Source: Bacillota bacterium
GTDB lineage: Bacteria; Bacillota; Sulfobacillia; JAJZYS01
NCBI GenBank assembly: GCA_021797925.1
Contig: JAJZYS010000003.1
Span: 1-34,925 of the forward strand
DNA length: 34,925 bases
Direction: 5' to 3'
Part shown: positions 9,773-33,479 of the stretch, one piece after another
Layout: the number at the start of each line of letters is the position of its first letter
Numbering within the stretch: the first letter of the stretch is position 1
Notes under the pieces: generated by a model
Seen by the model: only the letters and a program-made list of their open reading frames with translations
Database searches by the model: none
Told to the model about the DNA's origin: nothing
Made by a program: the position numbers and the translations under genes

Positions 9773-9781
9773 TGCTATACT
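9773..9781 (+). promoter_or_regulatory. Extended -10 element upstream of asp23
   Basis: TGCTATACT about 30 nt before the ATG, with AAAGGAAG RBS. Confidence 0.45.
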
Positions 9782-9812
9782 GGAAGGGGAGAGCACGAAA
9801 GGAAGTGTCACG

Positions 9813-10235: not shown

Positions 10236-10236
10236 C

Positions 10237-11005: not shown

Positions 11006-11023
11006 CCGAAGGGAGTCGTCGAG

Positions 11024-11422
11024 ACGGCACGTCGCCACGGGCGCATCCTGGCGCTGGAATCCCTCTTTGCCATGGACCTGGGGCAGGCTTCGCTGGACGA
11101 GGCGCTGGCCGACCGCCTGCGCGGTGAGCCCGAGGACGTGGCCGCGTTCACCCGCGAGGTCGTCACGGGAACGGCCGAGCACCGCGAGGAGATCGACGCC
11201 CGGCTCGCGGCCCTGAGCCCGGCGTGGAAACTGGGACGCATGGCCAGCGTGGACCGCAACGTGCTGCGCATGGCGGCGTACGAACTCATGTTCACCCCCC
11301 AGACCCCCACCGAGGTGGTCATCGACGAGGCGGTGGAACTGGCGAAGACGTACTCTACCGCCGAGTCGGGACGGTTCGTCAACGGCATCCTCGCCAGCCT
11401 CGCGCGGGAGGTACGTCCCTGA
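11024..11422 (+). CDS. nusB: Transcription antitermination factor NusB (probable non-canonical ACG start; first ATG is at 11072)
   Basis: RRHGRILALESLF N-terminal motif, W...RM..VDRNVLR, IDEAVELAK.Y and FVNGIL motifs. Confidence 0.93.
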   Translation, partial: TARRHGRILALESLFAMDLGQASLDEALADRLRGEPEDVAAFTREVVTGTAEHREEIDARLAALSPAWKLGRMASVDRNVLRMAAYELMFTPQTPTEVVIDEAVELAKTYSTAESGRFVNGILASLAREVRP

Positions 11423-12267: not shown

Positions 12268-13451
12268 CGGTGTCGGGCCTGACCCGCTACCTGAAGGCTT
12301 CCCTGGAGTCCGACCCCGTGCTCTCCTCGGTGACGGTGGAGGGCGAGATCGTGAACTTCCACCGTCACACCTCGGGGCACCTGTACTTCTCCCTGACCGA
12401 CTCCGTCGCGACGATCCGGGCGGTGATGTTCCGGGCCCGGGCAGCCACCCTGCGGATCCTTCCCGCCAGCGGTCAGAAGGTGCTGTGCACGGGGTATGTG
12501 AGCCTCTACGAGCAGGGCGGCCAGCTCGAGCTGTACGTGGAGCGCATGGAGCCGGCGGGCGTGGGAGCCAAGCTCCTCGAGCTTGAGGCCCTGCGCGAGC
12601 GGCTCAAGGCGGAGGGCCTCTTCGACGAGCGGCGAAAGCGCCCCCTGCCCCGCCTGCCCCGGCGGGTGGGAGTCATCACCTCGCCCACCGGCGCCGCGAT
12701 CCACGACATCCTCAAGGTGCTGCGCCGCCGCTACCCAGGGATCTCGGTGCTCGTCCGCGGCGTCCTGGTGCAGGGGGCCGGCGCGCCCAGGGGCATCGTC
12801 GAGGCGCTCGACCTCATGGGCCAGCGGGCGGACGTGGACGTGATCATCCTGGGCCGGGGCGGCGGGGCCAGCGAGGACCTGGACGCCTTCAACGACGAGG
12901 CCGTGGTCCGCGCGGTCGCCCATTGCCCGCATCCGGTCATCGCGGCGGTGGGCCATGAGAGCGACGTGACCCTCACGGACTTCGCGGCGGACCATAGGGC
13001 TCCGACGCCGTCCGCGGCCGCGGAGCTGGCCGTCCCCGAGCGCGAGCAGCTTCACAACCGGGTCCACGAGCTCGACGTCAGGCTCCGGCGCTCGCTGCTC
13101 GTGCGCCGCCGCCGGGCGAGAGAGGAGCTCTGGCGCCTTGTGACCCGGGGCGCGCTGGCGCACCCCCGGCGGCTCGTGGCGCCGCGGCGCGAGCGGCTGG
13201 ACCGCCTGTGGGAGCGGCTCGTCGCCGCCGTGCTCCGGGAGAAGGAGCGCGAGGACTGGCGCGCGTCGTCCCTGGCGCGCCGCCTCGAGGCCCTGGACCC
13301 GGACCGGGTGCTCGCCCGGGGCTACGCCATCGTGGAGGACACCCACGGCCGCGCGGTGGGACGCGCCGCGCAGGCCAGACGCCTGGAACGCCTGGAGCTG
13401 CGGTTTGTGGACGGACGGGTCCGCGCACGCGTGGAGGGGGATGAGCCGTGA
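12249..13451 (+). CDS. xseA: Exodeoxyribonuclease VII large subunit
   Basis: GEI.NF..H.SGHLYFSL, EGLFD, ITSPTGAAI.D, RGGG..EDL.AFN and AVGHE.D..TPSAAAE motifs. Confidence 0.97.
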   Translation: MASSVLTVSGLTRYLKASLESDPVLSSVTVEGEIVNFHRHTSGHLYFSLTDSVATIRAVMFRARAATLRILPASGQKVLCTGYVSLYEQGGQLELYVERMEPAGVGAKLLELEALRERLKAEGLFDERRKRPLPRLPRRVGVITSPTGAAIHDILKVLRRRYPGISVLVRGVLVQGAGAPRGIVEALDLMGQRADVDVIILGRGGGASEDLDAFNDEAVVRAVAHCPHPVIAAVGHESDVTLTDFAADHRAPTPSAAAELAVPEREQLHNRVHELDVRLRRSLLVRRRRAREELWRLVTRGALAHPRRLVAPRRERLDRLWERLVAAVLREKEREDWRASSLARRLEALDPDRVLARGYAIVEDTHGRAVGRAAQARRLERLELRFVDGRVRARVEGDEP

Positions 13452-13669
13452 CGTACGAGGAAGCCATCGCGCGGCTTGAGGCGCTGGTGCAGGAGCTCGA
13501 GGGCGGAGAGCTGCCCCTGGCGGGCGCGCTGGAGCGTTTCGAGGAGGGCATGGCGCTCGTCAAGCGGTGCCAGGCCCTTCTGGACGAGGCGGAGGGCAAG
13601 ATCGAGGCGCTGATGGGCGAAGGGGAGTCCTTGCGCACCGAGCCGTTCGAGCCGCCGGCCCGCGGCTGA
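13448..13669 (+). CDS. xseB: Exodeoxyribonuclease VII small subunit
   Basis: TYEEAIARLE..V..LE.G.LPL...L..FEEG..L...C...L..AE.KI. Confidence 0.96.
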   Translation: MTYEEAIARLEALVQELEGGELPLAGALERFEEGMALVKRCQALLDEAEGKIEALMGEGESLRTEPFEPPARG

Positions 13670-14535
13670 TGGAGCTTGCGGACCTGCGCCGGGCCGTGGA
13701 GGCGGGACTCGACGCGCTGCTGCCCCCCGCGCACGAGCGGCCTCGACGCCTGCACGCCGCCATGCGCTACGCCGTGCTCGAGGGCGGCGGCAAGCGGCTG
13801 CGCCCGCTCCTGATGCTCGCCGCCGCCCACGCGGTCGGCGGCGCGTGGGAGCCCCTCGTTCCCGCCGCCGCCGGCGTCGAGTGCATCCACGCGTATTCGC
13901 TGGTGCACGACGACCTGCCCGCGCTGGACGACGACGATCTGCGGCGGGGCCGGCCCTCGCTGCACCGTGCGTTCGACGAGGCCACGGCGCTATTGGCCGG
14001 CGACGCCCTCCTGCCCCTGGGGTTCGGGTCGCTTGCCCAGGTCGCGGTCGTGCCCGAGCGGTGCCGGCTGGCGCTCGCGATCCTGGCGGCGGCCACGGGG
14101 TCGACGGCCCTCGTGGGCGGGCAGGCGGAGGACCTCATGGCGGAGGGCCAGCCGCCTTCTCTGGAGCGAGTGGAGTGGATCCACGCCCGCAAGACATCCG
14201 CGCTCATCGAGGCAGCGCTCGAGATGGGGGCGGTGCTGGTGGGGGCCGAGGCGAGGCAGCGAGCCGCGCTGCGTCGCTTCGGCCGCGCCTACGGGCTCGC
14301 CTTCCAGATCCTCGACGACCTCCTGGACTTGACCGGCGGCGCGGGCAAGGAGGCCGGTGGAGACCACGCCCGGGGCAAGCAGACCTACCCGGCCGTGCTC
14401 GGGCGCGAGGGCGCCGTCGCGGCGGGACGAGCGGCGATCGACGAGGCGAGGGCGGCGCTCGTGGAACTCGGGGGGGACACGCGGTTGCTCGAGGCGCTGG
14501 TCCGAGAGGGGCCGCTCCGCTCGGACCTGTTCTGA
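13669..14535 (+). CDS. ispA: Farnesyl/geranylgeranyl diphosphate synthase
   Basis: GGKRLRP, HAYSLVHDDLPALDDDDLRRG and FQILDDLLD motifs. Confidence 0.95.
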   Translation: MELADLRRAVEAGLDALLPPAHERPRRLHAAMRYAVLEGGGKRLRPLLMLAAAHAVGGAWEPLVPAAAGVECIHAYSLVHDDLPALDDDDLRRGRPSLHRAFDEATALLAGDALLPLGFGSLAQVAVVPERCRLALAILAAATGSTALVGGQAEDLMAEGQPPSLERVEWIHARKTSALIEAALEMGAVLVGAEARQRAALRRFGRAYGLAFQILDDLLDLTGGAGKEAGGDHARGKQTYPAVLGREGAVAAGRAAIDEARAALVELGGDTRLLEALVREGPLRSDLF

Positions 14536-14601
14536 CGGCCCCCGCCACCGGACGCAGGCGCGCGTGCTGGCAGCGCGTGCCCCTGGAGGACCGGCCGCGG
14601 G

Positions 14602-14970
14602 CTACCTGGGCGCCCCGAGGAGGCCCAGGGCGAGCAGGGCCCAGCCGGCCAGGAAGAAGACGCCTCCCACGGGGGTGACCGCTCCGAGGGACCTGCGCCC
14701 GGTGAGGGCCAGGGCGTAAAGGCTCCCGGAGAAGAGGACGATGCCCCCGAGGAAGGCTCCCCCGCCCCACAGGGCGACGGGGGAGGCGAGTCGGGCCTCG
14801 ACGAGGCCTCCGGCGACGAGCGCCGCCAGGCTGTGCGTCATCTGGTACTGCACGCCGGTCTGAAACCACCCCATCCGGTCGGCCCCCAGCCGGCCGGCCA
14901 AGGCGTGGGCGCCGAAGGCGCCCAGCGCCACCGCCAGCAGACCGCTCAGGGCGCCCAGGAAAAGCGTCAT
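14602..14970 (-). CDS. DUF423 (YgdD/TMEM256) membrane protein
   Basis: ALGAFGAHAL, TGVQYQMTH, GIVLFSGSLY and GAVTPVGG motifs; AGGAGG RBS. Confidence 0.93.
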   Translation of the reverse strand: MTLFLGALSGLLAVALGAFGAHALAGRLGADRMGWFQTGVQYQMTHSLAALVAGGLVEARLASPVALWGGGAFLGGIVLFSGSLYALALTGRRSLGAVTPVGGVFFLAGWALLALGLLGAPR

Positions 14971-15322
14971 CGGTCATCACCTCCTGCCGCCGGGTCTTCG
15001 GCACGGCGGCGTCGCCGCCTGCACCGGCCGAGCCGGTGGCGCACAGCTGGGAGGCGTCGGGCGGCCCGTGATGTGGGCGCCTGCGGCCAAAGGGGCGTGC
15101 TCGCCGGGAGGACCGTGGGGCCAGGCCGCACTCCGCCTTACCGGGCACGGGGACTTCGGGTCCGCGGACTCGGCGCGGCGGCCCTCGCGTGCCGCGGGGC
15201 CGGGTGTCAAGGGTTCGGCTCTTCGACCCGATGACGCCGGGGTCCGTCGAGCCCGGTGCCCGAGGCTCAGGGCGCCCCAGGCTCGCCGGCCGGTCCGAGG
15301 CGAGGGGCTGCGGGCGCGATCG

Positions 15323-15640
15323 TCACGCGGGCCGCCGGCGGTGCACCAGCCGTCCCACCCCGGACCAGATCTCCCACACGACCGGGTATCCGAGGAACCA
15401 TAGCGGCGCGCCGACGCCAAGCGCCGTGCCGCGGCGATGGTGATGCCGAAGGCGGCAGGCTCCAGGACTCCCCGCACGGCGGGCCCAGCGAAACGGGCGG
15501 GACCCGCCGCCACGCGCGCTCGACGCCATGAACACCGCCGGGAGAAAGACGCTCGCGAATCCCTGGGTGACGGTGCCCAAGAGGTGCACGGCGCTCAGGG
15601 TCGCGGCGGTGATGGTGACGAGCCGCTGTGGACAGATGGG
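15323..15640 (-). pseudogene. Possible decayed MFS transporter fragment
   Basis: Hydrophobic MFS-like pieces in different frames: LSAVHLLGTVTQGFASVFLPA, GPARFAGPAVRGVL, GTALGVGAPLW; no intact ORF. Confidence 0.3.
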
Positions 15641-15687
15641 CCCGCCGCCACCAGTTCCCCCGCGGCCAGAAGCGCCAGGCCGATCAC

Positions 15688-15712
15688 GGTGGCCGCGCCC
15701 GGCGCGGCCACC
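15688..15712 (-). terminator. Perfect palindrome just downstream of the SLH gene
   Basis: GGTGGCCGCGCC-C-GGCGCGGCCACC, 11 nt past the stop codon; no U-tract. Confidence 0.45.
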
Positions 15713-15723
15713 CGCGCGGCGGG

Positions 15724-17784
15724 CTACACCTTGCCGATCAGGCGCAGGTAGCGAGCGATCACCACGGCGGCCTGCGCCCGGGTGGTGGTGCCCTGGGGGA
15801 GGAAGTCCCCGTCGGGGAACCCGTGGACGAGCCCCGCGCTCAGGGCCTTTCCCACGCCGACCGCGGCCCAGCGGGGCACCTTGCCCCCGTCGCGGAAGAC
15901 GGCGAGGCGAGCCGCCGGCGTCCGCGCGAGCGCCGGCAGCCGCGACAGCATGACGGCCATCTCCAGCCGGGTGATCGGCGCCTCGGGGTCGAAGCGGGTG
16001 GCGCTCACACCGCCGACGATCCCGGCCTCGTAGGCCGCGCGGACGTAAGGCGCGTACCACGCCGATGGGGCCACGTCGACGAACGGGAGGCGTCCCTTGG
16101 AAAGTGGCGCGAGACCGTCGGCGAGCGCCAGCATCTTGGTGAACTGGGCCCGGGTGACGCTCCGGTCGGGAGCGAACCGGCCGGCGGCCACGCCGTCGAC
16201 GATTCGAGCCCCCAGGAGTTCGTCCACGGCGGTGCGGGCCCATGGCGTCTTCACCAGGTCCGAGAACCGCTCCCGATTGATCAGGAGCGCGTACGTGCTC
16301 AGGTGCGCCAGCGTCACCGTGACCGTGGCGCGGTCGGGGTCGACGACGCCGCCGACCCACGTCCACGCGCGGGTCTTGGGATCGTAGAAGTAGACCCCCA
16401 GCCGGCCCGGACTGAGTCCGGAGAGCGCCTTCGCGTCGAAGTGCAGGACCAGGCGGACGGGCTCGTGGGGCTCGGCACCGCCCGAGGTGGTGATCACAAG
16501 GCCGGTCAGGGCCGCAAAGCCCGAGGGCGGCTCGGGCACCCGCCCTGGTTGCTCCTGCCGCACCGACACCTTTACGTCCGCCGAGAACGCGCCCCGGGGG
16601 ACCTCGAGCTGGACCTGGCCGCCCAGCAGCGCGATCGTGCCCCCCCGGGGGCCGACGGTGCCGGTGCCGACGGACCCTGAGGGCGCCGAGCCGAAGCCGA
16701 CGGAAAGCGGGATCAGGATGTCCGGGCCGGTGGTGGAGGCGGGCGGCGTGAGGGGCGAGGCGGGGACCTGGGGCGCCACGAACGTCACCTGAGCGGTGTT
16801 CCCGGCCGCGATGCCGGCCACCTTGGCCGTCACCGTGGCCGTGCCCGCGGTGGCGGAGCCGAGGCGGTCGGCGGCCACCCCCTCGGAGTCGGTGGGGACG
16901 GCGCCGGTCGTCGACAGCTGTCCCAGGGTGGTCGTGAAGGTCACGGGCACCCCAGGGAGCGCCTCGCCGGTGGCGCCGTAGACCGTGGCCGTGACCGTGG
17001 CGGCGGCCACGCCGTTGGCGGTCACCGTCGCCGGGGAGACGCTCACCTGTTCCCGATCGGGAACGGTGGGCGACGGCGCCACGGTGATGGCGAGGCCGGC
17101 GGTGGCCACCTGGGTCGGAGCGGAGCTGTCGGCGACCTGGACCGTGAAGCTCGCGCTCCCGGCGGCGGTCGGCGTCCCCTGGATCGTCCCCGTGGCGGGA
17201 TCGAGGGTCAATCCCGCCGGGAGGCTGCCGGCGATCACCGACCAGGTGTAGGGCGTGCTGCCGCCGTTGGCGGAAAGCGCCGCCGAGTACGCCGCGCCCA
17301 CCGTGGCGCCGGGGAGGATCCGGGTGGCCACGGCCAGGGGGGAGGCGGCCGCCACGGTGAGGTTCACCTGGCAGACGCTGCCGGGGGCGAACGTGAGCGC
17401 GGCCCCCGGGCTCAGGCTGCAGCCGCTCCCGCCGACGACGGTGGCCGTCGCCGCGAGAGCGTTCACCTCCAGCGTGATGGGCGCTCCCGCGACCGCGCCG
17501 TCACCCTGGACGGACAGCTTGGGGTCGAGCCCGCCGGGGCCGCCGTACGCGCCCGAGGCGGAGATGGCCAGCTCTCCCGCGGGCTGACCGCCGAGCACGG
17601 CGGTCACGTCCCCTTGGGTGACGGGCAGGTCGTGGGTCGTGGTCACCTCGCCCCACAGCGCCATGGGCAGGACGGGCGAGGACGCCGCGGCCGCCGGCAG
17701 GGCGCTGGCGATGACGATCGCCAGCGCGCCGAACCAGGCCAGGGGGCTGCGCACCGCGGCGACCGCGCGCGCGCTTCGGGTCAT
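15724..17784 (-). CDS. Secreted SLH-domain surface protein with N-terminal unnamed beta domain, putative Ig (He_PIG) and Big_1 domains
   Basis: Signal peptide; LPGATVGAAYSAAL..GG.TPYTWS..GSLPAGLTLD..TGTI.GTPT; ANG....VTATV....G..LPGVPVTF; three SLH repeats (FAPDRSVTRAQF, FDPEAPITRLEM, FLPQGTTTRAQAA). Confidence 0.9.
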   Translation of the reverse strand: MTRSARAVAAVRSPLAWFGALAIVIASALPAAAASSPVLPMALWGEVTTTHDLPVTQGDVTAVLGGQPAGELAISASGAYGGPGGLDPKLSVQGDGAVAGAPITLEVNALAATATVVGGSGCSLSPGAALTFAPGSVCQVNLTVAAASPLAVATRILPGATVGAAYSAALSANGGSTPYTWSVIAGSLPAGLTLDPATGTIQGTPTAAGSASFTVQVADSSAPTQVATAGLAITVAPSPTVPDREQVSVSPATVTANGVAAATVTATVYGATGEALPGVPVTFTTTLGQLSTTGAVPTDSEGVAADRLGSATAGTATVTAKVAGIAAGNTAQVTFVAPQVPASPLTPPASTTGPDILIPLSVGFGSAPSGSVGTGTVGPRGGTIALLGGQVQLEVPRGAFSADVKVSVRQEQPGRVPEPPSGFAALTGLVITTSGGAEPHEPVRLVLHFDAKALSGLSPGRLGVYFYDPKTRAWTWVGGVVDPDRATVTVTLAHLSTYALLINRERFSDLVKTPWARTAVDELLGARIVDGVAAGRFAPDRSVTRAQFTKMLALADGLAPLSKGRLPFVDVAPSAWYAPYVRAAYEAGIVGGVSATRFDPEAPITRLEMAVMLSRLPALARTPAARLAVFRDGGKVPRWAAVGVGKALSAGLVHGFPDGDFLPQGTTTRAQAAVVIARYLRLIGKV

Positions 17785-20700
17785 CGGCTGTCACCCGACG
17801 TGCCCCCGGTGGGGATGTCCCCGATCAGGGAGGCGCCGCCGCCGGTGGCGTAGACCCAGTACGCGTAGCCGTCGGCGACCGTGTCCGTGGTGTCCGACAG
17901 CGGGCTGGCCGACACCTTCAGGGTGCCGTTGGGATCCACGAGGCGGGCGATGAGGCCGTTCGTACCGGCGAGAAAGCGCGCGTACGTCTGCTGGCCCGAG
18001 AGCGACGAGGGACCCACCAGGTTCCAGCCGGGGGAGAGCGCGAGGTTCGGGGGCGGATTGAGCCTGGAGGTGGCGGAGAAGGAAAGGTTCACCGTGCCCG
18101 GACCCGCGAGATCCAGCTCGAAGCCCTGCATGGGCTCGGAGAGGAGCTGCGCCTCGTTCTGGCTCGTCACCTGGATCCACTGGCCGCCCTGGTACGCGTA
18201 CGCCGCGAGGAGGGACGCGCCCGCGTCCGAGAGCGCGGCGGCCAGGTCGGTGCTGGCGGGCACGAAGGGCAGCGACACGGTGTTCCAGCCGGGGTCGAGG
18301 ATGCGGCGCAGGGAGGTGGCCGCCGAGGTGACCGGCACGGAGGACGCGCCGGTGGCGGGCGCGTACTGGAACTGGATGCCGGCGCCGCCGACCGCCTCCA
18401 CAGCCGCGTTGAGCACCGCCACGCTCACGGTTCCCGTCCCGGGCGGGGTCGTCACGGTCAGGGTGTGATCGTCGACGACCTTGAGGTCCTGGCCCGGCGT
18501 CGCTCCGAAGAGGACTTGGACGGCGCCGGCGAAGCCGCTGCCCGTGAGGGTGACCTGGGTGCCCCCCGCGGCGGGCCCGGCCGTCGTGGAGATGGCGTCG
18601 ATCACGGGCACCGGTTCAAAGGCCACCTGGGTCACGCCGGTGAGCCCGACGGCGCCGTCGCTGTACACCGACGCGGTCACGGTCGCGGTCCCCGGCGACG
18701 GCGCCGTGAGCGTGGCCGCCACGCTGCCGTCGCCGGCCGTGGTCAGGTCGGTGTACGTGGAGCCCGTCACCGTGAACGAACCGAAGGAGGTCGTCAGCAC
18801 CACGGGCACGCCCGCCGCGGGCTCGCCGTCGGAGTCCTGGACCACCGCGCTCACACGGGCCGATCCGGTGCCCACGGCCACGTCGGGCGGCTGCGCGCCG
18901 ACGCTGACGGCCCCGAGACCGCCGCTGCCATGGCCCGTCCGATAGAGGAACTGGTCCTGGCTCGAGGTGGCGCTGAAGCCGCCCGAGTATCCCACCTGAA
19001 CGTTCACGGTTCCCGCCGCGTCGCCCAGCACGCCCAGGCCGGAGGGCGCCACCGCCTCGATGGTCGTGGGATCGACCACCGTGACGTCCTTCGCCGTGGC
19101 GCACGGGCCGCCCGACAGCGCGCAGAACTCGACGGGGGGCGGGGTGAGCAGGTACAGCTTCTGGCCCGCGGGGCAGGCCGCGGAGCACGGGATCGGCGTC
19201 TGGGCGTCCTGGAAGTTGGAGCCGGTGATGGTCACCTGCACCCCGCCGGTGATGGGCCCCGACGCGGGGGAGACCCCGGTGACCGTGGGCGGTCCCGTGG
19301 GAGGCGAGGCCACTTCGGGACGGCAGTTGCCCGCCGCCGACCCGGTGACGTCGTTGAATACGGTGACCGGCGAGACCGCGCTCCAGCCGCTCTGGGCGTA
19401 GACGCTCACGTAGACGGTCTCGGGACTGGAGACCGGCGGCGCGCACGCCAGGATCTCGTGGTCGTTGACCACCCGGAAACTCGTGGCGGGGGCGAAGGGC
19501 GGAAGGGAGTTAGCCGCGCCGGCGAGCGCCTGCGCGTACAGGGCGGGGTTGTCCGCGGGATCGGGCGCCCCGAACCAGACCTGGCTGACGCCGGTGAAGC
19601 CCGACCCGGTGACGGTCACCAGTTCTCCTCCTCCGGTGGGGCCCGACGACGGGCTGAGCCCGGTCACCGTCGGGCCGCTGGAGGAGGCCAGCTGCGCGAC
19701 GGTGAGCTGGCAGCTGCCCGTGCACACGTCGGCGCCGCCGGTGTCCTTCACCACGACCTTGTATGTTCCGGGCGAGAGCGCCGGCACCGTGGCGGTGATC
19801 GCGGTGTCGGTCACCGCCGAGACGTTGCCGAGGTCGGTGCACGCCCCTCCGCCGGCGGGGCACAGCTCCGCGGCCACCGGGCCGCTCCAGAACCCGCTGC
19901 CGGTGATGGTGATGTCCGCTCCGCCGTCACTGGAGACGGCGCTCGGCGTCACCGCCGAGATCTCGGGCGCCTTGACCTGGAACATCAGGGTGTCCCAGCG
20001 GGAGTCGAGCCAGATGGAGGTCGAGATGGGGTTGTTCACGTCGTCGAGGTCGGCCTGCGTCGCCGTCTCCACCGTGGAAGCGGCGGTGTGGGAGGACTCG
20101 TAGCTCACGCCCAGGGTGCTGCCGCTCAGCACGGACGAGCTGTAGCTGACGGACGTGCCCGCGCCCCCGAGATCGTCCTCGAAGGGGATGTTCACCGACG
20201 CCTCGACGCTGCTGGTGAGCACGCTCTCCACGGAGGACTCGAAGGTGGAGGTCTGGGTGGTCGTGTTCGTCTGGGATTGGGACTTGGTCAAGGTGACGAT
20301 GTAGTGGCCGTTGGTCCCGATGCCCGGCTGGCCCTGGGAGACGGTCTGGATCGGCGTCGCGAGGCCGCCCAGGGTCGTCGAGGGGTCGACCCCCTGCGAG
20401 CGCGCCGCCGCGAACGGGTCCATGTCGAGCAGGTTCTGGCATTCCGATGGTGACAGGACGACGCGCGCACCGCCGTAGTTGCCCGGGACGGGCAGCGGAT
20501 AGCCGTGGGTGCAGTGCAGCAGGGTGAAGGCGGGCACGTCGAACTGGGTCGACTGCGCCCCGATCATGGTGTACTGGGTGCCGGGATTCTGGCAGTTGCC
20601 GGCGCTGTCACACCAGCTGTTGTTCCACACCGCAAACTGCGGGTGCACGAGGAGCACGAACTGGTCGAACATCCACGGCTGCGTCCCGGGCGTGTCCAGC

Positions 20701-22769
20701 TGGAGCAGGCCCCCCCCCGAGTAGTTCTCGTAGCTCTTCCACGACTGCCCGAAGCCGCTCTCCAGTGCCAGGGCGTGGCCCACAGTCGCCTCCTGCGAGG
20801 TCGTGCTGCTCGTGGTCTGGTCCCAGGTCGTGGTATCGGTCACGCAGACGATGCATCCCAGCCCCGGAACGTCCCCGAAGCTCGCCTGCACGGAGGTGGA
20901 GAGCTGGGTGGAGGTCGCGGCGGTGTTGGACTGGGAGTGGCCCACGGTGAAGTCGGTCTCGCTGGTCTGCGTCTGGGTGAGCGAGAAGGACGAGGAGCTC
21001 TGGTCGCCCGGGGGCTGGTAGAGGATCTTGTACGGCAGCACCCCGAGCTGGACGAGGGCGGTGGGCGCGCGGAACTCGAAGAATCGCTCGCCGGTGTCGA
21101 TGGGGTAGAGCGTGCCCTGGGTCTGCACGCTGCGCTCGAGGACGACGACCCACGACGCCATGGGCGTGGGGAACGTGATGGAACCGTCGGCGGTCTGACC
21201 GCTCGTCACCGAAAGGTTCGTCGCCTGCACCAGGGTCCCGCACTGGGTGCCGCCGTCGAATGTGACCCCCTGGCCGGGGTTCGTCCCGCTGCCCGCGCTC
21301 ACGGCGGTGTTCTGGCACGCGCTCACGAAGCTCTGGTTGTACGCGATCGGCTGCGTCAGCACCATGAAGCGGCAGATCGCGCCGCTGGCGGCCCCCGAGG
21401 CGGCGGAGCAGCTGACGGGCACCTGGGTCATGGGCGAGGTGGTCGCCTCCGTCGGCGCCCCGAGCTGCTCGTAGTCCAGGGGGTTCCCCTGGGCGTCCTT
21501 GGTGGACTGGGGAACGATGAACCCCTGGGTGTAGGGCTGGCTCCCGGAAGTCCCGGTCGCGGTGATCGACGCGGCCGGCTTCGTGCCGATGGCGAGCCCC
21601 GGCGGCACGAACGGGGCCTGCGGCTGGAACTTGCTGATCGCCAGCTGCGGCGCGGCCGTCGACGGCGGGGCCGCGGAGCCGAAGTAGAAGGTCGGGGAGG
21701 TGCCGGTGAACGTGAGCGCGGAGTAGGTCTGGCTGGGAACGACGGACACCGTGACCGCGTCCCCGTGGGAGGTGGCCGCGGGGTTGGTCACGTCGCGGAT
21801 GGTGACGTGCACCACCTGCCCTCCCGGGAGCAGGGCGTCGCCCGGCAGGTTCAGATAGGCGCTCGAGGGGTCGGCCTGATACACGGACGTGGGTGCGATG
21901 GCGAGCGAGCCGTCCTGGATGGTGTAGTCGGCGGCTTGCCCGGGGAAGGCGGCACCCGCCTCGTCGGACAGGATGATCTGGCTGGAGGTGCCCGCGATGT
22001 TCCCGGGAGCGAGAAAGGAGACGTTCCAGGTCGTCCCCACGGCCTGCGCCGCCGACGTCGACGGCGCCGCCGCCACGTCGGGCACGGTCAGGGCCACCCC
22101 CTGGTCCGGTTCGCCGAACCTGAGGACGCCCGTCGCGACGGGAAGTCCCGGCGAGGTCACGGTCACCGTGTCCGCGAGGGGAGTCGAGCTGAACGCGTTG
22201 CTGAGCGGGTTGGTCATCCCGCTGATCGCCAGCGTGCCGGTGTCCGGGAAGTCCGTCTGGTCGGCGGAGGTGAGGCCGCCGAAGGCGACGTAGGTGACCC
22301 CGGCCAGGGAAAAGCGCTTCGAGCCGGTGAGCGTCTGCGTCTGTCCGCTCACCTGCAGGGTCAGGACGTAGTCGGCCGGATCGGCGGGAAACTGCGAGAT
22401 CGCGCTGTCGGTCACGGACTCGAACACGAAGACCCCGGCGTCGCCGTATTTCTGGATACACGCGGCGAAGGCCTTGAGCTCTTCGTACCGCAGGGTGGTA
22501 CCGACGGGTGCCGTCACGGGATACGCGGCGCCGCAGAGGCTCGCGGCGCCGTGGACGTGAACGGCGACGGGGGCTTGCTCCAGCGTCCACGTCACGCCCT
22601 TGACGCCCGAGATGTACGTGGTCGCCGTGGCGACAAGCTGCCCCGTGGTGCCGGCGGCGGCGGGCGGCGGTGCGGACAGCGCCATCGACACGAGGCCCAG
22701 CAGTGCCGACACGACGCCGAGCGGCCGCCACCCGCCTCGGCGCCCGCGAATCCTGACATGATCGCCCAA
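17781..22769 (-). CDS. Large secreted multidomain protein (1662 aa): Ser/Thr-rich core, four IPT/TIG repeats, Big_1, C-terminal tandem GWN domain
   Basis: AAGGAGG RBS 7 nt before TTG; signal peptide; repeated PTVTG.SP.SGP..GG..VT.TGS.F motifs; PGWNTVSLP and PGWNLVGP...GYAYWVY; 4-nt overlap with the SLH gene. Confidence 0.85.
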   Translation of the reverse strand: MGDHVRIRGRRGGWRPLGVVSALLGLVSMALSAPPPAAAGTTGQLVATATTYISGVKGVTWTLEQAPVAVHVHGAASLCGAAYPVTAPVGTTLRYEELKAFAACIQKYGDAGVFVFESVTDSAISQFPADPADYVLTLQVSGQTQTLTGSKRFSLAGVTYVAFGGLTSADQTDFPDTGTLAISGMTNPLSNAFSSTPLADTVTVTSPGLPVATGVLRFGEPDQGVALTVPDVAAAPSTSAAQAVGTTWNVSFLAPGNIAGTSSQIILSDEAGAAFPGQAADYTIQDGSLAIAPTSVYQADPSSAYLNLPGDALLPGGQVVHVTIRDVTNPAATSHGDAVTVSVVPSQTYSALTFTGTSPTFYFGSAAPPSTAAPQLAISKFQPQAPFVPPGLAIGTKPAASITATGTSGSQPYTQGFIVPQSTKDAQGNPLDYEQLGAPTEATTSPMTQVPVSCSAASGAASGAICRFMVLTQPIAYNQSFVSACQNTAVSAGSGTNPGQGVTFDGGTQCGTLVQATNLSVTSGQTADGSITFPTPMASWVVVLERSVQTQGTLYPIDTGERFFEFRAPTALVQLGVLPYKILYQPPGDQSSSSFSLTQTQTSETDFTVGHSQSNTAATSTQLSTSVQASFGDVPGLGCIVCVTDTTTWDQTTSSTTSQEATVGHALALESGFGQSWKSYENYSGGGLLQLDTPGTQPWMFDQFVLLVHPQFAVWNNSWCDSAGNCQNPGTQYTMIGAQSTQFDVPAFTLLHCTHGYPLPVPGNYGGARVVLSPSECQNLLDMDPFAAARSQGVDPSTTLGGLATPIQTVSQGQPGIGTNGHYIVTLTKSQSQTNTTTQTSTFESSVESVLTSSVEASVNIPFEDDLGGAGTSVSYSSSVLSGSTLGVSYESSHTAASTVETATQADLDDVNNPISTSIWLDSRWDTLMFQVKAPEISAVTPSAVSSDGGADITITGSGFWSGPVAAELCPAGGGACTDLGNVSAVTDTAITATVPALSPGTYKVVVKDTGGADVCTGSCQLTVAQLASSSGPTVTGLSPSSGPTGGGELVTVTGSGFTGVSQVWFGAPDPADNPALYAQALAGAANSLPPFAPATSFRVVNDHEILACAPPVSSPETVYVSVYAQSGWSAVSPVTVFNDVTGSAAGNCRPEVASPPTGPPTVTGVSPASGPITGGVQVTITGSNFQDAQTPIPCSAACPAGQKLYLLTPPPVEFCALSGGPCATAKDVTVVDPTTIEAVAPSGLGVLGDAAGTVNVQVGYSGGFSATSSQDQFLYRTGHGSGGLGAVSVGAQPPDVAVGTGSARVSAVVQDSDGEPAAGVPVVLTTSFGSFTVTGSTYTDLTTAGDGSVAATLTAPSPGTATVTASVYSDGAVGLTGVTQVAFEPVPVIDAISTTAGPAAGGTQVTLTGSGFAGAVQVLFGATPGQDLKVVDDHTLTVTTPPGTGTVSVAVLNAAVEAVGGAGIQFQYAPATGASSVPVTSAATSLRRILDPGWNTVSLPFVPASTDLAAALSDAGASLLAAYAYQGGQWIQVTSQNEAQLLSEPMQGFELDLAGPGTVNLSFSATSRLNPPPNLALSPGWNLVGPSSLSGQQTYARFLAGTNGLIARLVDPNGTLKVSASPLSDTTDTVADGYAYWVYATGGGASLIGDIPTGGTSGDSR

Positions 22770-23090
22770 TGGCCTTCCTCCTTGTTAAGGTAGAGGTGCC
22801 GCCGCGGTCGCGGCGCCTTCGAGAGGGATCCGGGTCGATGCTCGCCCCTGCGGCGGGGTGTCGGCGGTCGCGAGCGGGAGGATCGGTCTTCCTCCCGGGC
22901 CGCTCGCACCCGGCTGCTCCAGGACTGCGTCACCTTGCGCGCCGGGGCGTGAACCGCCGGCGCGGGGTGTCACCGCGACCTCAGTGGGGACAGGCCGGTT
23001 CCAGCCTGCTCCTTCTATTCATACCGCTCCGGCGTCTCCGCGGCGGCACAGGCGCATCTCTTCGGCGTCACACGTGCCATCGACAGCACA

Positions 23091-23117
23091 GCGGCCGACG
23101 TCGTCGACGTCGGCCGC
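23091..23117. repeat. Perfect 27-nt palindrome between the regulator and the large-protein gene (terminator or operator)
   Basis: GCGGCCGACGTCG-T-CGACGTCGGCCGC, 20 nt past the regulator stop. Confidence 0.55.
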
Positions 23118-23137
23118 GAAACGCGCGATGAACCTTG

Positions 23138-26100
23138 TTAGCCTGTGCGGTCCGCCGGTTGCAAAGGGCCGTCCCCCGCGGGCTGCGCCTTCCACCGCCC
23201 GGGAGGCAGCGCCGCGTGGGCGTCCGCCCAGCGCAGCCCCGTACGGTGCAGGAGCCGCACCGCGTGGCTCGCGTGGTGGCTGCGCGCGGCGGGCGTGGGG
23301 GCGAGGTGGGAGAGGACCGCGTGGCAGCGCGCCAGCTCCGGCAGCGCGCCGATGGCCTCGGCTTCCGCCAGCGCCGCCTCGATCAGGCGCACGGCGCGAT
23401 CGCGCTCGCCGGTGACGGCGGTGCACAGCCCCAGGGCGCGACCGCACAGCGCGATGTCGTAGCGGACGTTGTCCCGTCGGGCCTCGGCCAGGGCCTCCTC
23501 GGCGGCGAGGCGTCCAGCGCGGGCGTCGCCGGCGCTGAGCCTCGCCAGCGCCAGCATGCCCCGGGCGTGGGGCACGAAGATGCGGGTGCCGGCCTGCCTG
23601 GCCAGGGCGAGGGCGTGCTCCTGCACCCGCAGCCCGCGCTGCACGTCGCCCGTGCGCACCAGGGCCAGTCCGTACGGCACGGCGGCCAGATAGCTCAGGT
23701 ACGGGAAGCCGGTCCGGCGCGAGAGCAGCCGGGCCTTGCGGCCGCTGGAGCGGGCCTGGGGCCACGCCCCGCGGATCCCCGCGGCGATGGCCCGAAAGGC
23801 GTGCACGTACGCGAGGTGCAGCTCCTCCCCCGCCCGGCGCTCCTCCAGCCAGTCGTACAGCGTGGAGGCGAAGTGGAAGTTGCCGCGGGCCACCTGCACG
23901 ATGCCGATGGTCACCATGGCCACGGTGGCGTCCAGCACGTTCCGCGCCGCCTCGTGGAGCGAGCCGGCCTCGGCCAGCACGGGCAGGGCCAGCTGGAAGT
24001 TGCCCTGCATGGCCTCGCCCAGGCCCTGGGCGAGGAGGCCCGCCGCCCGAAGCCGTTCGTCCGCCAGCGTCTGGGCGGCGGCGACGACCCGGGCACCGCG
24101 GTGGGCGGCCTCGCGGTAGCGTCCCTCGTAGAAGTCGAGCCGGGCACAGGTGGCCGCGACGCCCGCCTCGATGCGGGCGTCGCGAATGGCCCTGGCCTCG
24201 TGGCGGGCGTCGTTCAGGAACACGTGGGCCTCGGCGGGCCGCACGTAGAGCGCGGCGGTGGCGAGCTCCAGCCGGATGGCCGCCCTCCTGGCGAGGACCC
24301 CGGGGGTCGGCGCCAGCTCGTCGCTCAGCGTGAGCGCCTGCTCGAGCAGGGAGACCGCCCCGCCGAGAAACGCCGCGCCGCGGGCGGCCGTGGCGGCCCT
24401 GAGCAGCCAGTCCAGCGCCTCCTCTCGGACCCCGCCCGCCGCCGCGTGCAGGGCGGCTGCGCCCATGTCGGGCCAGGACGCCTGGCGGGCGGGCACGCCC
24501 GAGGGAAGACCGCCCGTCCGCCCCGTCGCCAGGTCCCGCGCCAGCACCCGGAACGCCGCCCGGTGCAGCATCGCGCGGCGGGTATCGCTCTGCGCGGCGA
24601 GGACCCAGCGCCTTAGGACGTCGTGGCGGAAGTGCACCATGGGGCGGCCCCACGGGTCGCTGCGCTCCACCACCAGGCCGATGCGCTCAAGGTCCTCGAA
24701 CGCGTCCACCGCCTCCGCCTCGCTCAGTCCGGCGACCTGGCGCGCCGCCTCGAGGTCCACGCCGCCGTCGAAGACGGCCAGCGCCCCCGCCAGCCGGCGA
24801 CCGGTCGCCGGCAGGTGGCCCAGGCGGTCCGCCAGGGCGCGTTCCACCTGTGACGGCGCGCCCGTCGGGGGCAGGCCCTGGGCCAGGGCGGACAGGAGCT
24901 CGGTCGCCAGCAGGGGATTTCCGCCCGTTTCCCGGTAGAGTTCCTCCAGGGCGCGCTCGTCCCGTGCCCCCACGATGTGCTGGGCCAGCTGGCCGACGCC
25001 GGCGAGGGAGAGGGGCGACAGGTCTACGCGGGAGAGACGACCCGAGCGACGCAGCGAGGCGAACAGCCGCCCCAGGCTCGGCGCGTCGGCGTCGCCGCGC
25101 GTGGTCGCCACCACGGCGAGGCCTCGCTGGCCGGGAGCGGCCGCCGGTTCGAGGAGCATCCGCAGCGAGTCCTCGTCCCCGAACTGGATGTCCTCCATGG
25201 CGACCAGCACCGGTGCCGGGACGGCATTGAGCGCCCGTCGCATCGCCTGCAGCAGGCGCATCCGCTCCACGAGGGGAGGCAGGGGCCCGGGCGCAGGCAC
25301 GTCGGGGCGCTCGTGGAGGATGTCCGGGAGGATCCGGGCCAGTTCCGAAAGCCAGACGTCGGGCAGGGCTCCGGGGGCGCTCAGCGTCGCGATCAGCGGT
25401 TCCAGGGCTTCCGCGAGCACGGCGAAGGGCAACTCGCGCAGGCTCTCGCGGCAGCGCACCCACAGCATGGTGTCGTAGCGCGTGCCCGCGGCGGCGACCG
25501 CCTCGCCCAGCAGCCGGCTCTTGCCGATCCCGGCCTCGCCCGCGAGGAGCACCACCTGCGCCTCGCCGGTCGCGGCGGCACCCAGGATCCGGGTCACGCG
25601 CGCGAGTTCCGGTCCGCGCTCCACCAGCGGCGCCTCGGCCAGCGCCCTGGGCAGGGGCCGCACGGTCGGCTGCACGGCGGACCGGCCCTCTCCGGCGCGC
25701 CCCCGGCCGGCGATGCGGGCCCGCAGTTCCTCCGTCTCGACCGAGGGATGCACGCCCAGCTCGCGCCGGAGCAGTTCCCGGCAGGTCGCGTACTGGGTGA
25801 GGGCGGACGCTCGGTCCCCCGAGGCGGAAAGCGCCTGCATGAGATAGCGGTGGAACCGCTCCTGAAAGGCGTCCACGGATAGGGCCTTGCGGGCGCTCAC
25901 GGCCAGCGCGGACCACGCCCCCACGGCGGCCTGCGCGGCGCACAGGTCCTCGAGAACGTCGAGGAAGCGCGTCTCCCACGCCGTACGCTGCTGGGCGAGC
26001 CACGACTCGAACGCGTCGCAGCCGGAAAGCGTGAACCCCTCCAGGAACGGTCCCCGCCACTGGGCGGCCGCGAGCTCGAGCGACTGGGCCCGGGCCTCGG

Positions 26101-26443
26101 GCCCGGACGCCGCGCGGGCCGCGTCCACGTGCCTGGCGAAGGCGACCGTGTCCACCCGGATGTCCTGGGCGGGCTGCCAGCAAAGCTCGTCCGCCGAGGC
26201 GCCAATCGGCCACTGGGGCAGGGCCGCGCGCAGCCGGCTCAGGGTCACGGCCAGACTGTGGCGCCCGGCGGCGTCGCCCGTACCCTCCCACAGCAGGGCC
26301 ACCGCGGCGCTGCGGGCGATGCGACCGGTGGGCTGGGAGGAAAGCAGGGCGAGGAGGGCCGTTCCCTTGCGCGGAAGGCGTGCGGGGGTTTGGGTGCCCA
26401 CATCGACGCTCGCGGGGCCCAGAAGTCGGATCCACATGGCCAA
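23138..26443 (-). CDS. SARP/AfsR-like regulator: wHTH + BTAD + AAA ATPase + TPR-like repeats
   Basis: IRLLGP..LLALL, WRGPFLEG...FESWL, E.FHR.LM.AL...G.R..AL.QY..L..ELGV.PS; Walker A GEAGIGKS; Walker B VAMEDIQ; T.GNPL; alanine-rich helical repeats. Confidence 0.9.
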   Translation of the reverse strand: MAMWIRLLGPASVDVGTQTPARLPRKGTALLALLSSQPTGRIARSAAVALLWEGTGDAAGRHSLAVTLSRLRAALPQWPIGASADELCWQPAQDIRVDTVAFARHVDAARAASGPEARAQSLELAAAQWRGPFLEGFTLSGCDAFESWLAQQRTAWETRFLDVLEDLCAAQAAVGAWSALAVSARKALSVDAFQERFHRYLMQALSASGDRASALTQYATCRELLRRELGVHPSVETEELRARIAGRGRAGEGRSAVQPTVRPLPRALAEAPLVERGPELARVTRILGAAATGEAQVVLLAGEAGIGKSRLLGEAVAAAGTRYDTMLWVRCRESLRELPFAVLAEALEPLIATLSAPGALPDVWLSELARILPDILHERPDVPAPGPLPPLVERMRLLQAMRRALNAVPAPVLVAMEDIQFGDEDSLRMLLEPAAAPGQRGLAVVATTRGDADAPSLGRLFASLRRSGRLSRVDLSPLSLAGVGQLAQHIVGARDERALEELYRETGGNPLLATELLSALAQGLPPTGAPSQVERALADRLGHLPATGRRLAGALAVFDGGVDLEAARQVAGLSEAEAVDAFEDLERIGLVVERSDPWGRPMVHFRHDVLRRWVLAAQSDTRRAMLHRAAFRVLARDLATGRTGGLPSGVPARQASWPDMGAAALHAAAGGVREEALDWLLRAATAARGAAFLGGAVSLLEQALTLSDELAPTPGVLARRAAIRLELATAALYVRPAEAHVFLNDARHEARAIRDARIEAGVAATCARLDFYEGRYREAAHRGARVVAAAQTLADERLRAAGLLAQGLGEAMQGNFQLALPVLAEAGSLHEAARNVLDATVAMVTIGIVQVARGNFHFASTLYDWLEERRAGEELHLAYVHAFRAIAAGIRGAWPQARSSGRKARLLSRRTGFPYLSYLAAVPYGLALVRTGDVQRGLRVQEHALALARQAGTRIFVPHARGMLALARLSAGDARAGRLAAEEALAEARRDNVRYDIALCGRALGLCTAVTGERDRAVRLIEAALAEAEAIGALPELARCHAVLSHLAPTPAARSHHASHAVRLLHRTGLRWADAHAALPPGRWKAQPAGDGPLQPADRTG

Positions 26444-26759
26444 TCAACCACCCGTGCCTCAGGGGCCAGCGTGACGACCCGCGAAGATGACCGGGACCCA
26501 AGGCCTCTACGCGTCCTGGGCGGGGCCGGCACACCGTCAAACTCGTGGACCAGGATCTGGCGGCCGAGGCGTTGTGGCTCCAGCACTTCGATGGCGACGA
26601 AGGCGTGTCCTTCCGAGCGGGCGAGAATCGAGCGTTCGCGGCCGCGAACCGTTTGGGCAGCGGCGAGCGCGAGCGCTCGCGCGGGGGCGATTGCGCCCCT
26701 GCACCTTCGCCCATTCACTGCCACTGGCCGGAGCCGGTGGCGCCAAACGCGCCTGACGC

Positions 26760-26787
26760 TTGGCGGATGGCGGCCGCGACGTATAAT
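26760..26787 (+). promoter_or_regulatory. Putative sigma-A promoter for OLE RNA-oapA-dxs
   Basis: TTGGCG-N16-TATAAT; a perfect -10 box in very GC-rich DNA about 20 nt before the OLE 5' stem. Confidence 0.6.
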
Positions 26788-26808
26788 AGAGATGAACGAT
26801 CGACGAGC

Positions 26809-27408
26809 GTTGGGGTGGCGCAGTATTCTAGTCGATCGCCCACTCCCCCAGGGCGGGCCTAAAAATTCGCCGAAGGGCACATCGATGAAGTTCCTGGTGC
26901 TGGCTTTCCACGCCCAGTGGGGGGTCGGTGCTGGGAGTTAAGGGGGACGGGGCGGCCCGCAATGGCATGTGGGCGACCACCCTGCCCCCGTGGAGACCCG
27001 AGCTCGTGGGAGCCCACCGACGGGTCGCCTACGTCTCGGGACAGAACCTGCATGCGGTACCCATCATGGTGTGGTGCTGTGTGCAGCGTAGCCTGCCTTG
27101 AGCTTGAGCGGGAGAGGTCAGGACAGCCCCGCGCCCGAGGCCTCGGACGCGGGTACCGCGAACGACTGAAACCGCTGCGGCAAAAGAGGCTAAGGGAAGT
27201 GGGAGTCGGGGAGGAAAACTCCTAGACTGTTCGGAAACGAGTTCCCGCGGGGATTGCAGTGTGGACTCAGTGGTAATCTAGCCTCGAGATCGGCGACGAC
27301 TCGACACGGAACGAACGGGGAACCGCCGGGACGGCGACGTCCGGTTATCCGGAGGGGAAAGCCAGCTAGACCTAAGCCGCAGCCTTGACCCGCGGGATGC
27401 CACCCAAC
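26809..27408 (+). ncRNA. ole: OLE RNA (ornate large extremophilic RNA)
   Basis: Conserved OLE blocks GCAGTATTCTAGTC, AAGGGCACATCGATGAAGTTCCTGGTGCTGGC, GCTGGGAGTTAA, GTAGCCTGCCTTGAG, GCAAAAGAGGCTAAG, GAGGAAAACTCCTAGACTG, GGATTGCAGTGTGGAC and TAGACCTAAGCCGCA; terminal stem GTTGGGGTGGC / GCCACCCAAC; followed immediately by oapA and dxs. Confidence 0.93.
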
Positions 27409-27427
27409 CTTCCGTTGGAGGAATCTC

Positions 27428-27979
27428 TTGAAGCGGACGTCGCGGGGACTGGATCCGGCTCGAGCCTTTCGAGTGGGTGGACTTAGCCTCGTGGCGGCCG
27501 CGATGGTAGCTTACGGAACGCAGACGGCCGAGACCGGCATCGGTCCCGTCGGAGCGTTCCCTTTGTTGCTGGGAATCATCCTCGTCACCACGATTTTTGA
27601 TATCATCGGGGTGTCGGTGACGTCGGCGGACTCGGCGCCGTTCTTCGCCCAGGCGTCGCGGCGGCAGCGGGGGGCCCGGCAGAGCTTGTGGCTGCTCGCC
27701 AACGCTGATCGCGTGGCCAACGTGTGTACGGACGTGGTGGGCGACATCGCCGGCACGGTCAGCGGTGCGCTGGCGGCCGGAGTGGCGGTACACTGGACAG
27801 GCCCCGAGCCGGAACCGCTCAAGGTGGCGCTGGTCGTGGGAATCGTCTCGGGGTTCACGATCGGACTGAAGGCGGTGGCCAAGACGGTTGCAATCCGGGA
27901 AGCCAACCGGGTGATCCGCAGCACCGGGCGCGTTCTCGCCCTGGTGTGGGTGCCCAAGCGCGGGAGTCAGGGGCGGTGA
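27428..27979 (+). CDS. oapA: OLE-associated membrane protein A
   Basis: IFDIIGVSVTSA...PF..A.RR..GA....L..NADRVAN.C.DVVGDIAG..SG signature; directly downstream of OLE; GGAGG RBS and TTG start. Confidence 0.9.
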   Translation: MKRTSRGLDPARAFRVGGLSLVAAAMVAYGTQTAETGIGPVGAFPLLLGIILVTTIFDIIGVSVTSADSAPFFAQASRRQRGARQSLWLLANADRVANVCTDVVGDIAGTVSGALAAGVAVHWTGPEPEPLKVALVVGIVSGFTIGLKAVAKTVAIREANRVIRSTGRVLALVWVPKRGSQGR

Positions 27980-30685: not shown

Positions 30686-30697
30686 CCGGGGCCCGCG

Positions 30698-33445: not shown

Positions 33446-33479
33446 GCCGGGCTGGATGCGGGACGGAGGCCCGACGGCC

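Follow-up and report, generated by a model that had tools for sequence, protein, structure and literature searches.

The window analyzed here is a 34,925-nucleotide stretch of a Bacillota genome (assembly GCA_021797925.1, contig JAJZYS010000003.1) with a G+C content of approximately 72%. On its minus strand, an open reading frame (ORF) at 17781-22769, with a G+C fraction of 0.94 at third codon positions (GC3), encodes a 1662-aa secreted multidomain protein. Within this carrier protein we identified a conserved module of approximately 370 aa (residues 568-935, 19965-21068, minus strand; the range aligned in homologues by BLAST), which may be a previously uncatalogued β-barrel pore-forming-type domain built around two long hairpins. 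The carrier N-terminus reads from its sequence like a signal peptide, with a basic stretch, a hydrophobic stretch, and an Ala-rich end. An identical protein is already on record (P0002) but is unnamed. The only Pfam families found in the carrier were four TIG stretches and one Big_1, all past residue 936, with nothing in residues 1-935. This immunoglobulin (Ig)-like array of IPT/TIG and Big_1 domains spans residues ~936-1470 (18360-19964, minus strand), with a TIG E-value of 8.8e-30 (103 bits against a cut-off of 20.9) and a Big_1 E-value of 8.7e-09 at residues 1297-1374 (35.8 bits against a cut-off of 34.9), scores that classify the carrier protein and not the module. The C-terminal ~190 residues (~1471-1662, 17784-18359, minus strand) have no family assignment beyond a sub-threshold fn3_3 match (E 0.19) and are conserved among close homologues. 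For the N-terminal third (residues ~40-555, 21105-22652, minus strand), Pfam likewise gives no family. A weak alignment (28% identity) links it to repeated units of P0015, a protein with sub-threshold DUF2808 and SWM_repeat matches, and it probably consists of further Ig-like repeats.

The large gene sits between a putative anchor gene and a regulator gene. Directly 3′ of it, and overlapping its stop by 4 bases, is a gene at 15724-17784 (minus strand) that encodes He_PIG, Big_1/Invasin_D3, and three SLH domains (Pfam SLH E 3.3e-34). Since this product carries SLH domains, and since the two products are fused into one protein in homologues P0008 and P0009, it is likely the cell-wall anchor partner of the large protein. 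In homologues P0010, P0011, and P0019, CWB2 wall-binding repeats take the place of SLH. Upstream is a gene for an 1101-aa regulator (23138-26443, minus strand) of the signal transduction ATPase with numerous domains (STAND)/Streptomyces antibiotic regulatory protein (SARP) type, with Pfam matches to BTAD (E 7.3e-28) and AAA_16 (E 1.3e-18). These three genes and a DUF423 gene fill a 13.2-kb gap (14536-27723) between the end of ispA at 14535 and the start of dxs at 27724. The flanks on both sides (1-14535 and 27724-34925) hold housekeeping genes, including the sporulation gene SpoIIIAE (5509-6681, plus strand) and genes for biotin carboxylase, the exonuclease VII large subunit, polyprenyl synthetase, Dxs, an S4/FtsJ methyltransferase, a TetR regulator, and NAD kinase, in an order that we take to resemble the spoIIIA-acc-xse-ispA-dxs-recN region of Bacillus. 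Among six same-order relatives compared, xseA, ispA, and dxs are contiguous in five, with an ispA-dxs gap of approximately 1.3 kb, and the regulator, large, and SLH genes are all missing from this site in every one of the six. Because the relatives keep xseA-ispA-dxs together without these genes, 14536-27723 looks like a lineage-specific, islet-like insertion of approximately 13 kb, which fits the patchy distribution of the module described below.

A HMMER search with the module returned 159 representative proteins at E≤1e-3, 61 at E≤1e-10, and 14 at E≤1e-30. The relatives range from 83 to 3491 aa, and in many of them, at 550-1000 aa, the module lies within the C-terminal half. Its carriers take two forms: wall-anchored proteins of 1300-3500 aa, and short forms of 550-700 aa that consist of an N-terminal part and the module with little else and no anchor domain. 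The relatives are secreted proteins that span Bacillota, Actinobacteria, and Proteobacteria, with named examples in Bacillota metagenome-assembled genomes, Nitriliruptorales, Caulobacteraceae, Rhizomicrobium, and Rhodanobacteraceae, and those named are annotated only as "hypothetical" or "IPT/TIG domain-containing". Of 41 genomes from the class of the host, two encode the module. The host genome itself encodes a second copy on another contig (C268; L015:4789-10251, plus strand) that is 27% identical. This second protein is at least 1821 aa, as it runs off the contig, and it too has SLH and TIG domains; a gene for a STAND-LuxR regulator lies in front of it. No Pfam family had its best stretch on the module in any of 49 homologues scanned, NCBIfam returned nothing relevant in five homologues scanned, the module sequence alone matched no PDB sequence, and tblastn against plasmids and phages gave no match. 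The region was thus correctly described as an unclassified family by an earlier sequence-only reading of this DNA, which had proposed a two-hairpin β-pore-forming-protein-like domain here. We found no description of such a module in the literature searched, which does not prove that it is unpublished.

For structure prediction we aligned 51 sequences, comprising the window module and 50 of 154 other proteins at 21-50% identity. The 50 were picked by eye for fuller module coverage and are mostly of shorter length. Conservation values below refer to this alignment, and module positions are numbered 1-386 from protein residue 555. The best AlphaFold2 (AF2) model had a mean predicted local distance difference test score (pLDDT) of 80.3 and a predicted template modeling score (pTM) of 0.67, with pLDDT at 85-97 in the head and hairpin bases. 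In this model, a compact head carries exactly two long β-hairpins, in agreement with the two-hairpin count of the sequence-only reading. The N-terminal head strands (module 14-37, 20997-21068, minus strand) contain the near-invariant motif PYxIxYxPPGxxS, with predicted strands at 17-20 and 23-29 (pLDDT 87-95); Y30 and G34 are invariant, and P32, P33, and S37 are at least 90% conserved. In the window protein, YKILYQPPGDQS occupies residues 580-591 (20997-21032, minus strand). Strand boundaries assigned by DSSP on the model place hairpin 1 at module 38-124 (20736-20996, minus strand), with strand 1a at 38-77, the tip at 78-86, and strand 1b at 87-124. Hairpin 2 follows at module 269-354 (20046-20303, minus strand), with strand 2a at 269-308, the tip at 309-313, and strand 2b at 314-354. 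Between them lies a central head domain of mixed α/β structure (module 125-268, 20304-20735, minus strand; pLDDT 85-97 in the whole-module model and 81.9 when predicted alone), which carries HPQ, LxxCAxG, ECxxLL, and LDPF motifs. HPQ is conserved, and the Asp-Pro of LDPF is invariant. The C-terminal head strands (module 355-381, 19965-20045, minus strand) contain conserved D356 and D368 in the consensus YxDxxFGTxMFQ, with predicted strands at 363-368 and 373-377 (pLDDT 95). In the head, C199 is at least 90% conserved and C223 is the majority residue, and the two likely form a disulfide. A fold search with the head domain alone recovered no recognized fold (best VIA Z 3.0, best Foldseek E 0.55). 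Both chain ends exit the predicted module at the head, so that the sheet projects sideways. A homodimer prediction with two module copies, run without controls, scored 0.00 and counts neither for nor against binding.

The hairpins coincide with two Ser/Thr-rich stretches from which the pore-forming proposal had started. The peptides quoted for that proposal, which had named no strand, are all found in the minus-strand translation of ORF 17781-22769. The first stretch is 71 residues long (residues 594-664, 20778-20990, minus strand), as is the second (residues 825-895, 20085-20297, minus strand). Their combined Ser and Thr content is 42.3% and 43.7%, compared with 22.6% over the full-length protein and 15.0% across the 160 residues that separate them, and the richest 40-residue window of the entire carrier begins at residue 591. 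Across the homologues the median is 35% per hairpin versus 15% in the central part, so the enrichment is family-wide. Each stretch had also been said to turn at a hydrophobic tip. This is the case for the first, GLGCIVCV, at residues 636-643. The second tip, FEDDLGGAG, is instead an acidic and glycine-containing loop, with the hydrophobic residues on its flanking strands. The two hairpins show no detectable internal duplication, as an hhalign comparison of one with the other gave a probability of 24.6% over 21 columns.

An ordinary explanation for such composition would be that the Ser/Thr stretches are flexible, possibly O-glycosylated linkers and that the long hairpins are a modeling artefact. 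Ser/Thr-rich surface proteins of thermophilic Firmicutes are often glycosylated, pLDDT drops to 50-66 at the hairpin tips, and the other four AF2 models average only 66-71. However, in each of the 51 homologues the return strand of hairpin 1 has 27-29 residues, and hairpin 2 has strands of 35-42 and 37-43 residues; the standard deviation of hairpin strand length is 0.4-0.9 residues, so that lengths are fixed within 1-2 residues despite the low sequence identity. Indels in the hairpins are restricted to the two tip loops, proline makes up 0.6-0.8% of the hairpins versus 9.6% of the head, and a strict period-2 pattern is conserved. With fixed strand lengths, scarce proline, and tip-only indels, the hairpin region appears to be neither a linker nor an Ig domain, the two outcomes that the sequence-only reading had itself set against its proposal. 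Covariation ladders at the predicted registers, extending to the tips, likewise argue against a linker. This explanation is largely refuted, and we consider it very improbable.

We determined strand pairing by covariation. A module profile hidden Markov model gave 241 domain matches, of which 121 covering at least 80% of the 363 match columns were kept, for an effective number of sequences (Neff) of 109. Mean-field direct coupling analysis (DCA) was applied to the hairpin columns, and scores were averaged along 606 strand diagonals. The antiparallel 1a/2b diagonal at i+j=391 ranked first of the 606 with a z-score of 4.3, the 1a/1b diagonal at i+j=162 reached 3.2, and the 2a/2b diagonals at i+j=621-627 reached 2.3-3.1. 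These peaks are the registers implied by the AF2 strand boundaries. When only the distal halves were considered and gap-rich columns were removed, z was 3.0 for hairpin 1, 4.5 for hairpin 2, and 6.0-7.6 for 1a/2b. The covariation registers thus support a single four-stranded antiparallel sheet with the order 1b-1a-2b-2a, in which the strands are paired out to the tips.

Toward its distal end, the sheet carries an amphipathic belt. The belt and tip of hairpin 1 span module 69-95 (20823-20903, minus strand), and those of hairpin 2 span module 301-322 (20142-20207, minus strand). Family-wide hydrophobic fractions alternate along every strand. On strand 1a, positions 69, 71, 73, 75, and 77 are hydrophobic in 0.41-0.75 of sequences, versus 0.04-0.22 at the alternate positions, and on strand 1b, positions 85, 87, and 89 reach 0.73-0.82 versus 0.04-0.16. 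The odd positions of 301-309 on strand 2a reach 0.51-0.88 versus 0.00-0.20, and the even positions of 314-322 on strand 2b reach 0.41-0.88 versus 0.02-0.04. Past the belt on strand 1b, and closing its hairpin 1 segment, is a near-invariant W95-D96 pair: position 95 is hydrophobic in 98% of sequences (Trp, at least 90% conserved), and position 96 is charged in 88%. Together the belt positions form a hydrophobic band approximately nine residues tall on one face of all four strands, at an equal distance from the head, and registers 162, 391, and 623 place the belt positions of the four strands facing each other. The opposite face is made up of Ser, Thr, Asn, and Gln, and between the belt and the head much of the sheet is polar on both faces. 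This pattern is what a barrel segment with a lipid-facing and a lumen-facing side needs, and it also fits a sheet packed on another protein layer.

The second of these possibilities is the main rival to a pore. The module could be a non-lytic structural or adhesive prong, in which the sheet would give a surface protein a stable arm. The hydrophobic face of the sheet would be packed against domains of the same chain, against the SLH or CWB2 partner, or against another copy of the module, and the prong would serve in lattice or complex assembly or bind a ligand such as a polysaccharide through its flat Ser/Thr face, with no membrane insertion. We regard this as a real possibility, although we would not expect it to be the correct one. 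The carrier is built like an adhesin or S-layer-associated protein, with its arrays of TIG and Big_1 domains, its pairing with an SLH protein, and homologues in which SLH or CWB2 is fused to it, and the sideways projection of the sheet from a head where both chain ends leave would suit an arm. On the other hand, a mid-section that is polar on both faces, combined with a distal belt that is level on four strands, is unlike a uniformly packed sandwich. The short forms of 550-700 aa also speak against a prong: composed of an N-terminal part and the module with no anchor, they are more like a secreted effector than a lattice component.

Sequence comparisons are a further point against a prong, as the profile and language-model neighbors with names are almost exclusively pore-formers. 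When the 51-sequence profile was compared with all PDB sequences, 11 matches were found at E≤10, and 10 of these were β-pore-formers: Vip4 (two entries, E 0.003), epsilon toxin (three, E ~0.04), parasporin-2 (E 0.16), anthrax protective antigen (PA; three entries, E 0.37-0.8), and Cry23Aa1 (E 0.86). The eleventh was MlaC. All five alignments inspected, to Vip4 and epsilon toxin, fall on the hairpins of those proteins. By language-model features, unnamed clusters ranked first (0.95), followed at 0.89-0.91 by clusters whose members include Aerolysin (15% of members), ETX_MTX2 (80%), and the monalysin family BB_PF (98%). These similarities are leads and not proof. At the level of Pfam, Aerolysin (PF01117) and ETX_MTX2 (PF03318) were not listed for the carrier protein at E≤1 or in 49 homologues at E≤0.001. 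ETX_MTX2 had no match in 401 genomes of the phylum but also none in 14 controls, which makes that search uninformative. MACPF, thiol-activated cytolysin, and gasdermin were not reported for the carrier at E≤1, consistent with the earlier remark that no canonical MACPF or CDC signature was visible, and Secretin (PF00263), Binary_toxB, and PA14 were not listed for the carrier either.

Structure comparisons pointed elsewhere. Foldseek against the PDB gave 30 matches at E≤1e-3 (best E 3.8e-6), and all among the matches listed were secretins, at a template modeling (TM) score of ~0.1 and a root-mean-square deviation (rmsd) of ~28 Å. An aligner independent of Foldseek placed secretins in 11 of its top 14 rows, led by PilQ (Z 7.0, 109 residues, rmsd 6.3) and phage pIV (Z 6.6, 93 residues, rmsd 3.9), with parasporin-2 at Z 3.7, MPEG-1 at Z 3.7 over 79 residues, and epsilon toxin at Z 3.5. 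In a second structure comparison, the titles of the first 26 rows all named secretins of secretion systems, pili, or phages, and epsilon toxin came next at Z 3.8. Across these comparisons, epsilon toxin matched over 127-129 residues (Z 3.5-3.8, rmsd 8.8-9.0), and Cry51 reached Z 2.0-2.6. Against the BFVD viral library, Foldseek returned a herpesvirus "histidine-rich glycoprotein-like" model, an unrelated, low-complexity protein, at E 1.8e-8 and probability 1.00 with a TM score of 0.17, which indicates that Foldseek E-values are inflated for models with long β-strands.

The lead taken by secretins in both structure searches raises the alternative of a secretin-like ring in the producer's own envelope, where a very large barrel with four strands per subunit would act as a conduit or hub in the wall or S-layer zone without attacking other cells. 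The module shares with PilQ, GspD, InvG, and pIV a long, curved, four-stranded antiparallel wedge formed by two hairpins with an inserted domain between them (Z 4.5-7.0), a topology reminiscent of secretins. Nevertheless, the structure matches span 93-145 residues and cover the four long strands only, no sequence relationship is apparent, the inserted domain differs, and the head alone matches no secretin gate. The Secretin Pfam model, positive in six control genomes, had no match anywhere in the 96%-complete host genome. Omp85 was not found in that genome either, and with neither Omp85 nor secretin the host is probably monoderm and so probably lacks an outer membrane. A Pfam scan of the window neighbors found no secretion-system genes near the module gene. 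The restriction of the module to 2 of 41 genomes of the class is a further difficulty for this alternative, as are the poor TM and rmsd values, the inflated E-values, and Z-scores that all stay below 8. With no Secretin match in protein or genome, no outer-membrane marker, and no secretion genes nearby, we did not adopt secretin homology and consider a secretin-like ring unlikely. We read the match instead as a long, curved, four-strand wedge of the giant-barrel kind. Because the homologues span envelope types and the host has neither Omp85 nor secretin, the module does not appear to depend on an outer membrane of its own.

Compared with established pore-formers, the module combines features of several families. 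Two membrane hairpins per protomer build the giant barrels of MACPF/CDC proteins and gasdermins. Soluble MACPF/CDC proteins keep these hairpins folded as two clusters of helices next to a bent central sheet. The module resembles these families in having two hairpins, and hence four strands, per protomer, here predicted by AF2 and supported by covariation. It differs in that its hairpins are predicted as preformed long β-hairpins rather than helical bundles or short extensions, though the model and the covariation may reflect one state only. With anthrax PA and Vip4 it shares a long Ser/Thr-alternating hairpin with a hydrophobic tip. The alignment of family hairpin 1 to the Vip4 hairpin (E 0.003) takes in the Trp that follows the tip, and PA63 aligns with family hairpin 2 (E 0.37-0.8). 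These alignments are limited to the hairpin, and PA and Vip4 have one hairpin per protomer.

The likeness to aerolysin/ETX-MTX2 toxins lies in the hairpin itself. A study of the epsilon-toxin pore (PMC6572795) describes the pore-forming module of aerolysin-type toxins as Ser/Thr-rich and gives the β-hairpin domain of epsilon toxin (Etx) as 79 residues (95-173), with an insertion loop at 123-148 and a lumen lined mostly by Ser and Thr. A Ser/Thr-rich hairpin of approximately 80 residues with an amphipathic insertion tip between long strands is present twice in our module, in hairpins of 84-87 residues, about the size of the Etx hairpin (PMC6572795). Family hairpin 2 also aligns tip-to-tip with the Etx insertion hairpin (E 0.04). 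In contrast to these toxins, the module has two hairpins per chain rather than one and a head of no recognized fold, and it is embedded in large wall-anchored proteins or in the short forms described above.

We assign a probability of roughly 0.4 to our preferred interpretation, in which this is a previously uncatalogued, two-hairpin module of the β-barrel pore-forming type that SLH or CWB2 partners hold on the wall. In this model, a compact, disulfide-containing head would carry two Ser/Thr-rich β-hairpins of approximately 85 residues side by side as one four-stranded antiparallel sheet. Heads would oligomerize into a ring, and the four-stranded wedges would join edge to edge, strand 2a of one protomer to strand 1b of the next, to form a large barrel with a Ser/Thr-lined lumen and its hydrophobic belt in a target membrane. 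Such a barrel would have four strands per protomer as in MACPF/CDC proteins and gasdermins, but with long hairpins like those of aerolysin or PA. The analysis establishes the family, the two hairpins with their pairing, the amphipathic belt, and the gene context; ring formation, barrel closure, membrane insertion, and the nature of the target are what we infer. The two-hairpin architecture and the absence of a family classification put forward by the sequence-only reading therefore stand, and the weak similarities point to pore-forming toxins as it proposed, but the best fold matches, at Z 7.0 or less, fall under the line at which they can be trusted.

Several observations weigh against the pore-forming interpretation. 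The lower confidence of the hairpin tips and of four of the five AF2 models has been mentioned. The contact that would close the barrel, 1b/2a, shows weak covariation, with z of 2.0 on the diagonal and 1.4-2.2 by halves, and DCA and AF2 are not independent, because both use related family alignments. The profile matches to PDB sequences are weak and carry a composition bias of 10-11 bits, and the language-model recognition value is low (1627), with named families at no more than 0.89-0.91. Every structure match lies below Z 8, the caution line of the tool, and the model superposes poorly on aerolysin-type toxins (Z 3.5-3.8, rmsd 7-9 Å). A pore would require the belt, but the belt is not diagnostic of one, since any strand packed on a second layer would alternate in the same way. 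Additional hydrophobic patches at module 41-53, 289-297, and 332-336 share the face of the belt, lie nearer the head, and may pack on other domains. These last points, like the low Z-scores, also favor a structural prong. Finally, released toxins do not usually lie in mid-chain of a wall-associated protein of 170 kDa.

If the module does form pores, the genomic context indicates how the protein might be displayed and controlled. Together with the SLH or CWB2 partner, the Ig-like arrays would tether the protein to the wall of the producer. A separate wall-anchor gene also lies directly 3′ of the module gene in loci L005 (CWB2) and L008 (SLH). A STAND-type regulator (AAA_16 with BTAD or GerE, often with TPR) adjoins the module gene in six of seven Bacillota-type loci whose flanks were scanned: in the window (23138-26443) and at L004:2344-5196, L005:439-3243, L009:2-1624 (cut by the contig end), L010:10618-13884, and L015:1285-4491. 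It is absent at L008 and at all three alphaproteobacterial loci (L012-L014). A 683-aa neighbor in L012 was considered as a paralogue of the module protein and ruled out (best E 2.7). The regulators adjoining module genes suggest dedicated, conditional expression, in which a STAND regulator would switch the module protein on.

The β-pore-former superfamilies are few, comprising aerolysin, haemolysin, PA/binary toxins, MACPF/CDC, and gasdermin. It is doubtful, but worth stating, that the module could be the founding example of a new and widespread superfamily of this kind, with two preformed hairpins of aerolysin or PA length per subunit and very large barrels, tethered to the wall in Gram-positive hosts under a STAND regulator and serving as a contact-range membrane weapon aimed, for instance, at predators or wall-less competitors, and not as a toxin that diffuses freely. 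If true, this would be a sixth lineage, joining aerolysin-length Ser/Thr hairpins to the four-strand logic of MACPF and gasdermin. It would bear on the evolution of pores and would give nanopore work a new scaffold. The family, which is spread over at least three phyla, has no annotation at all, and a testable function for its core of approximately 370 residues would annotate well over 100 protein clusters. If the module is structural instead, it would still be a new domain, an unusual sheet of 40-residue strands on giant surface proteins.

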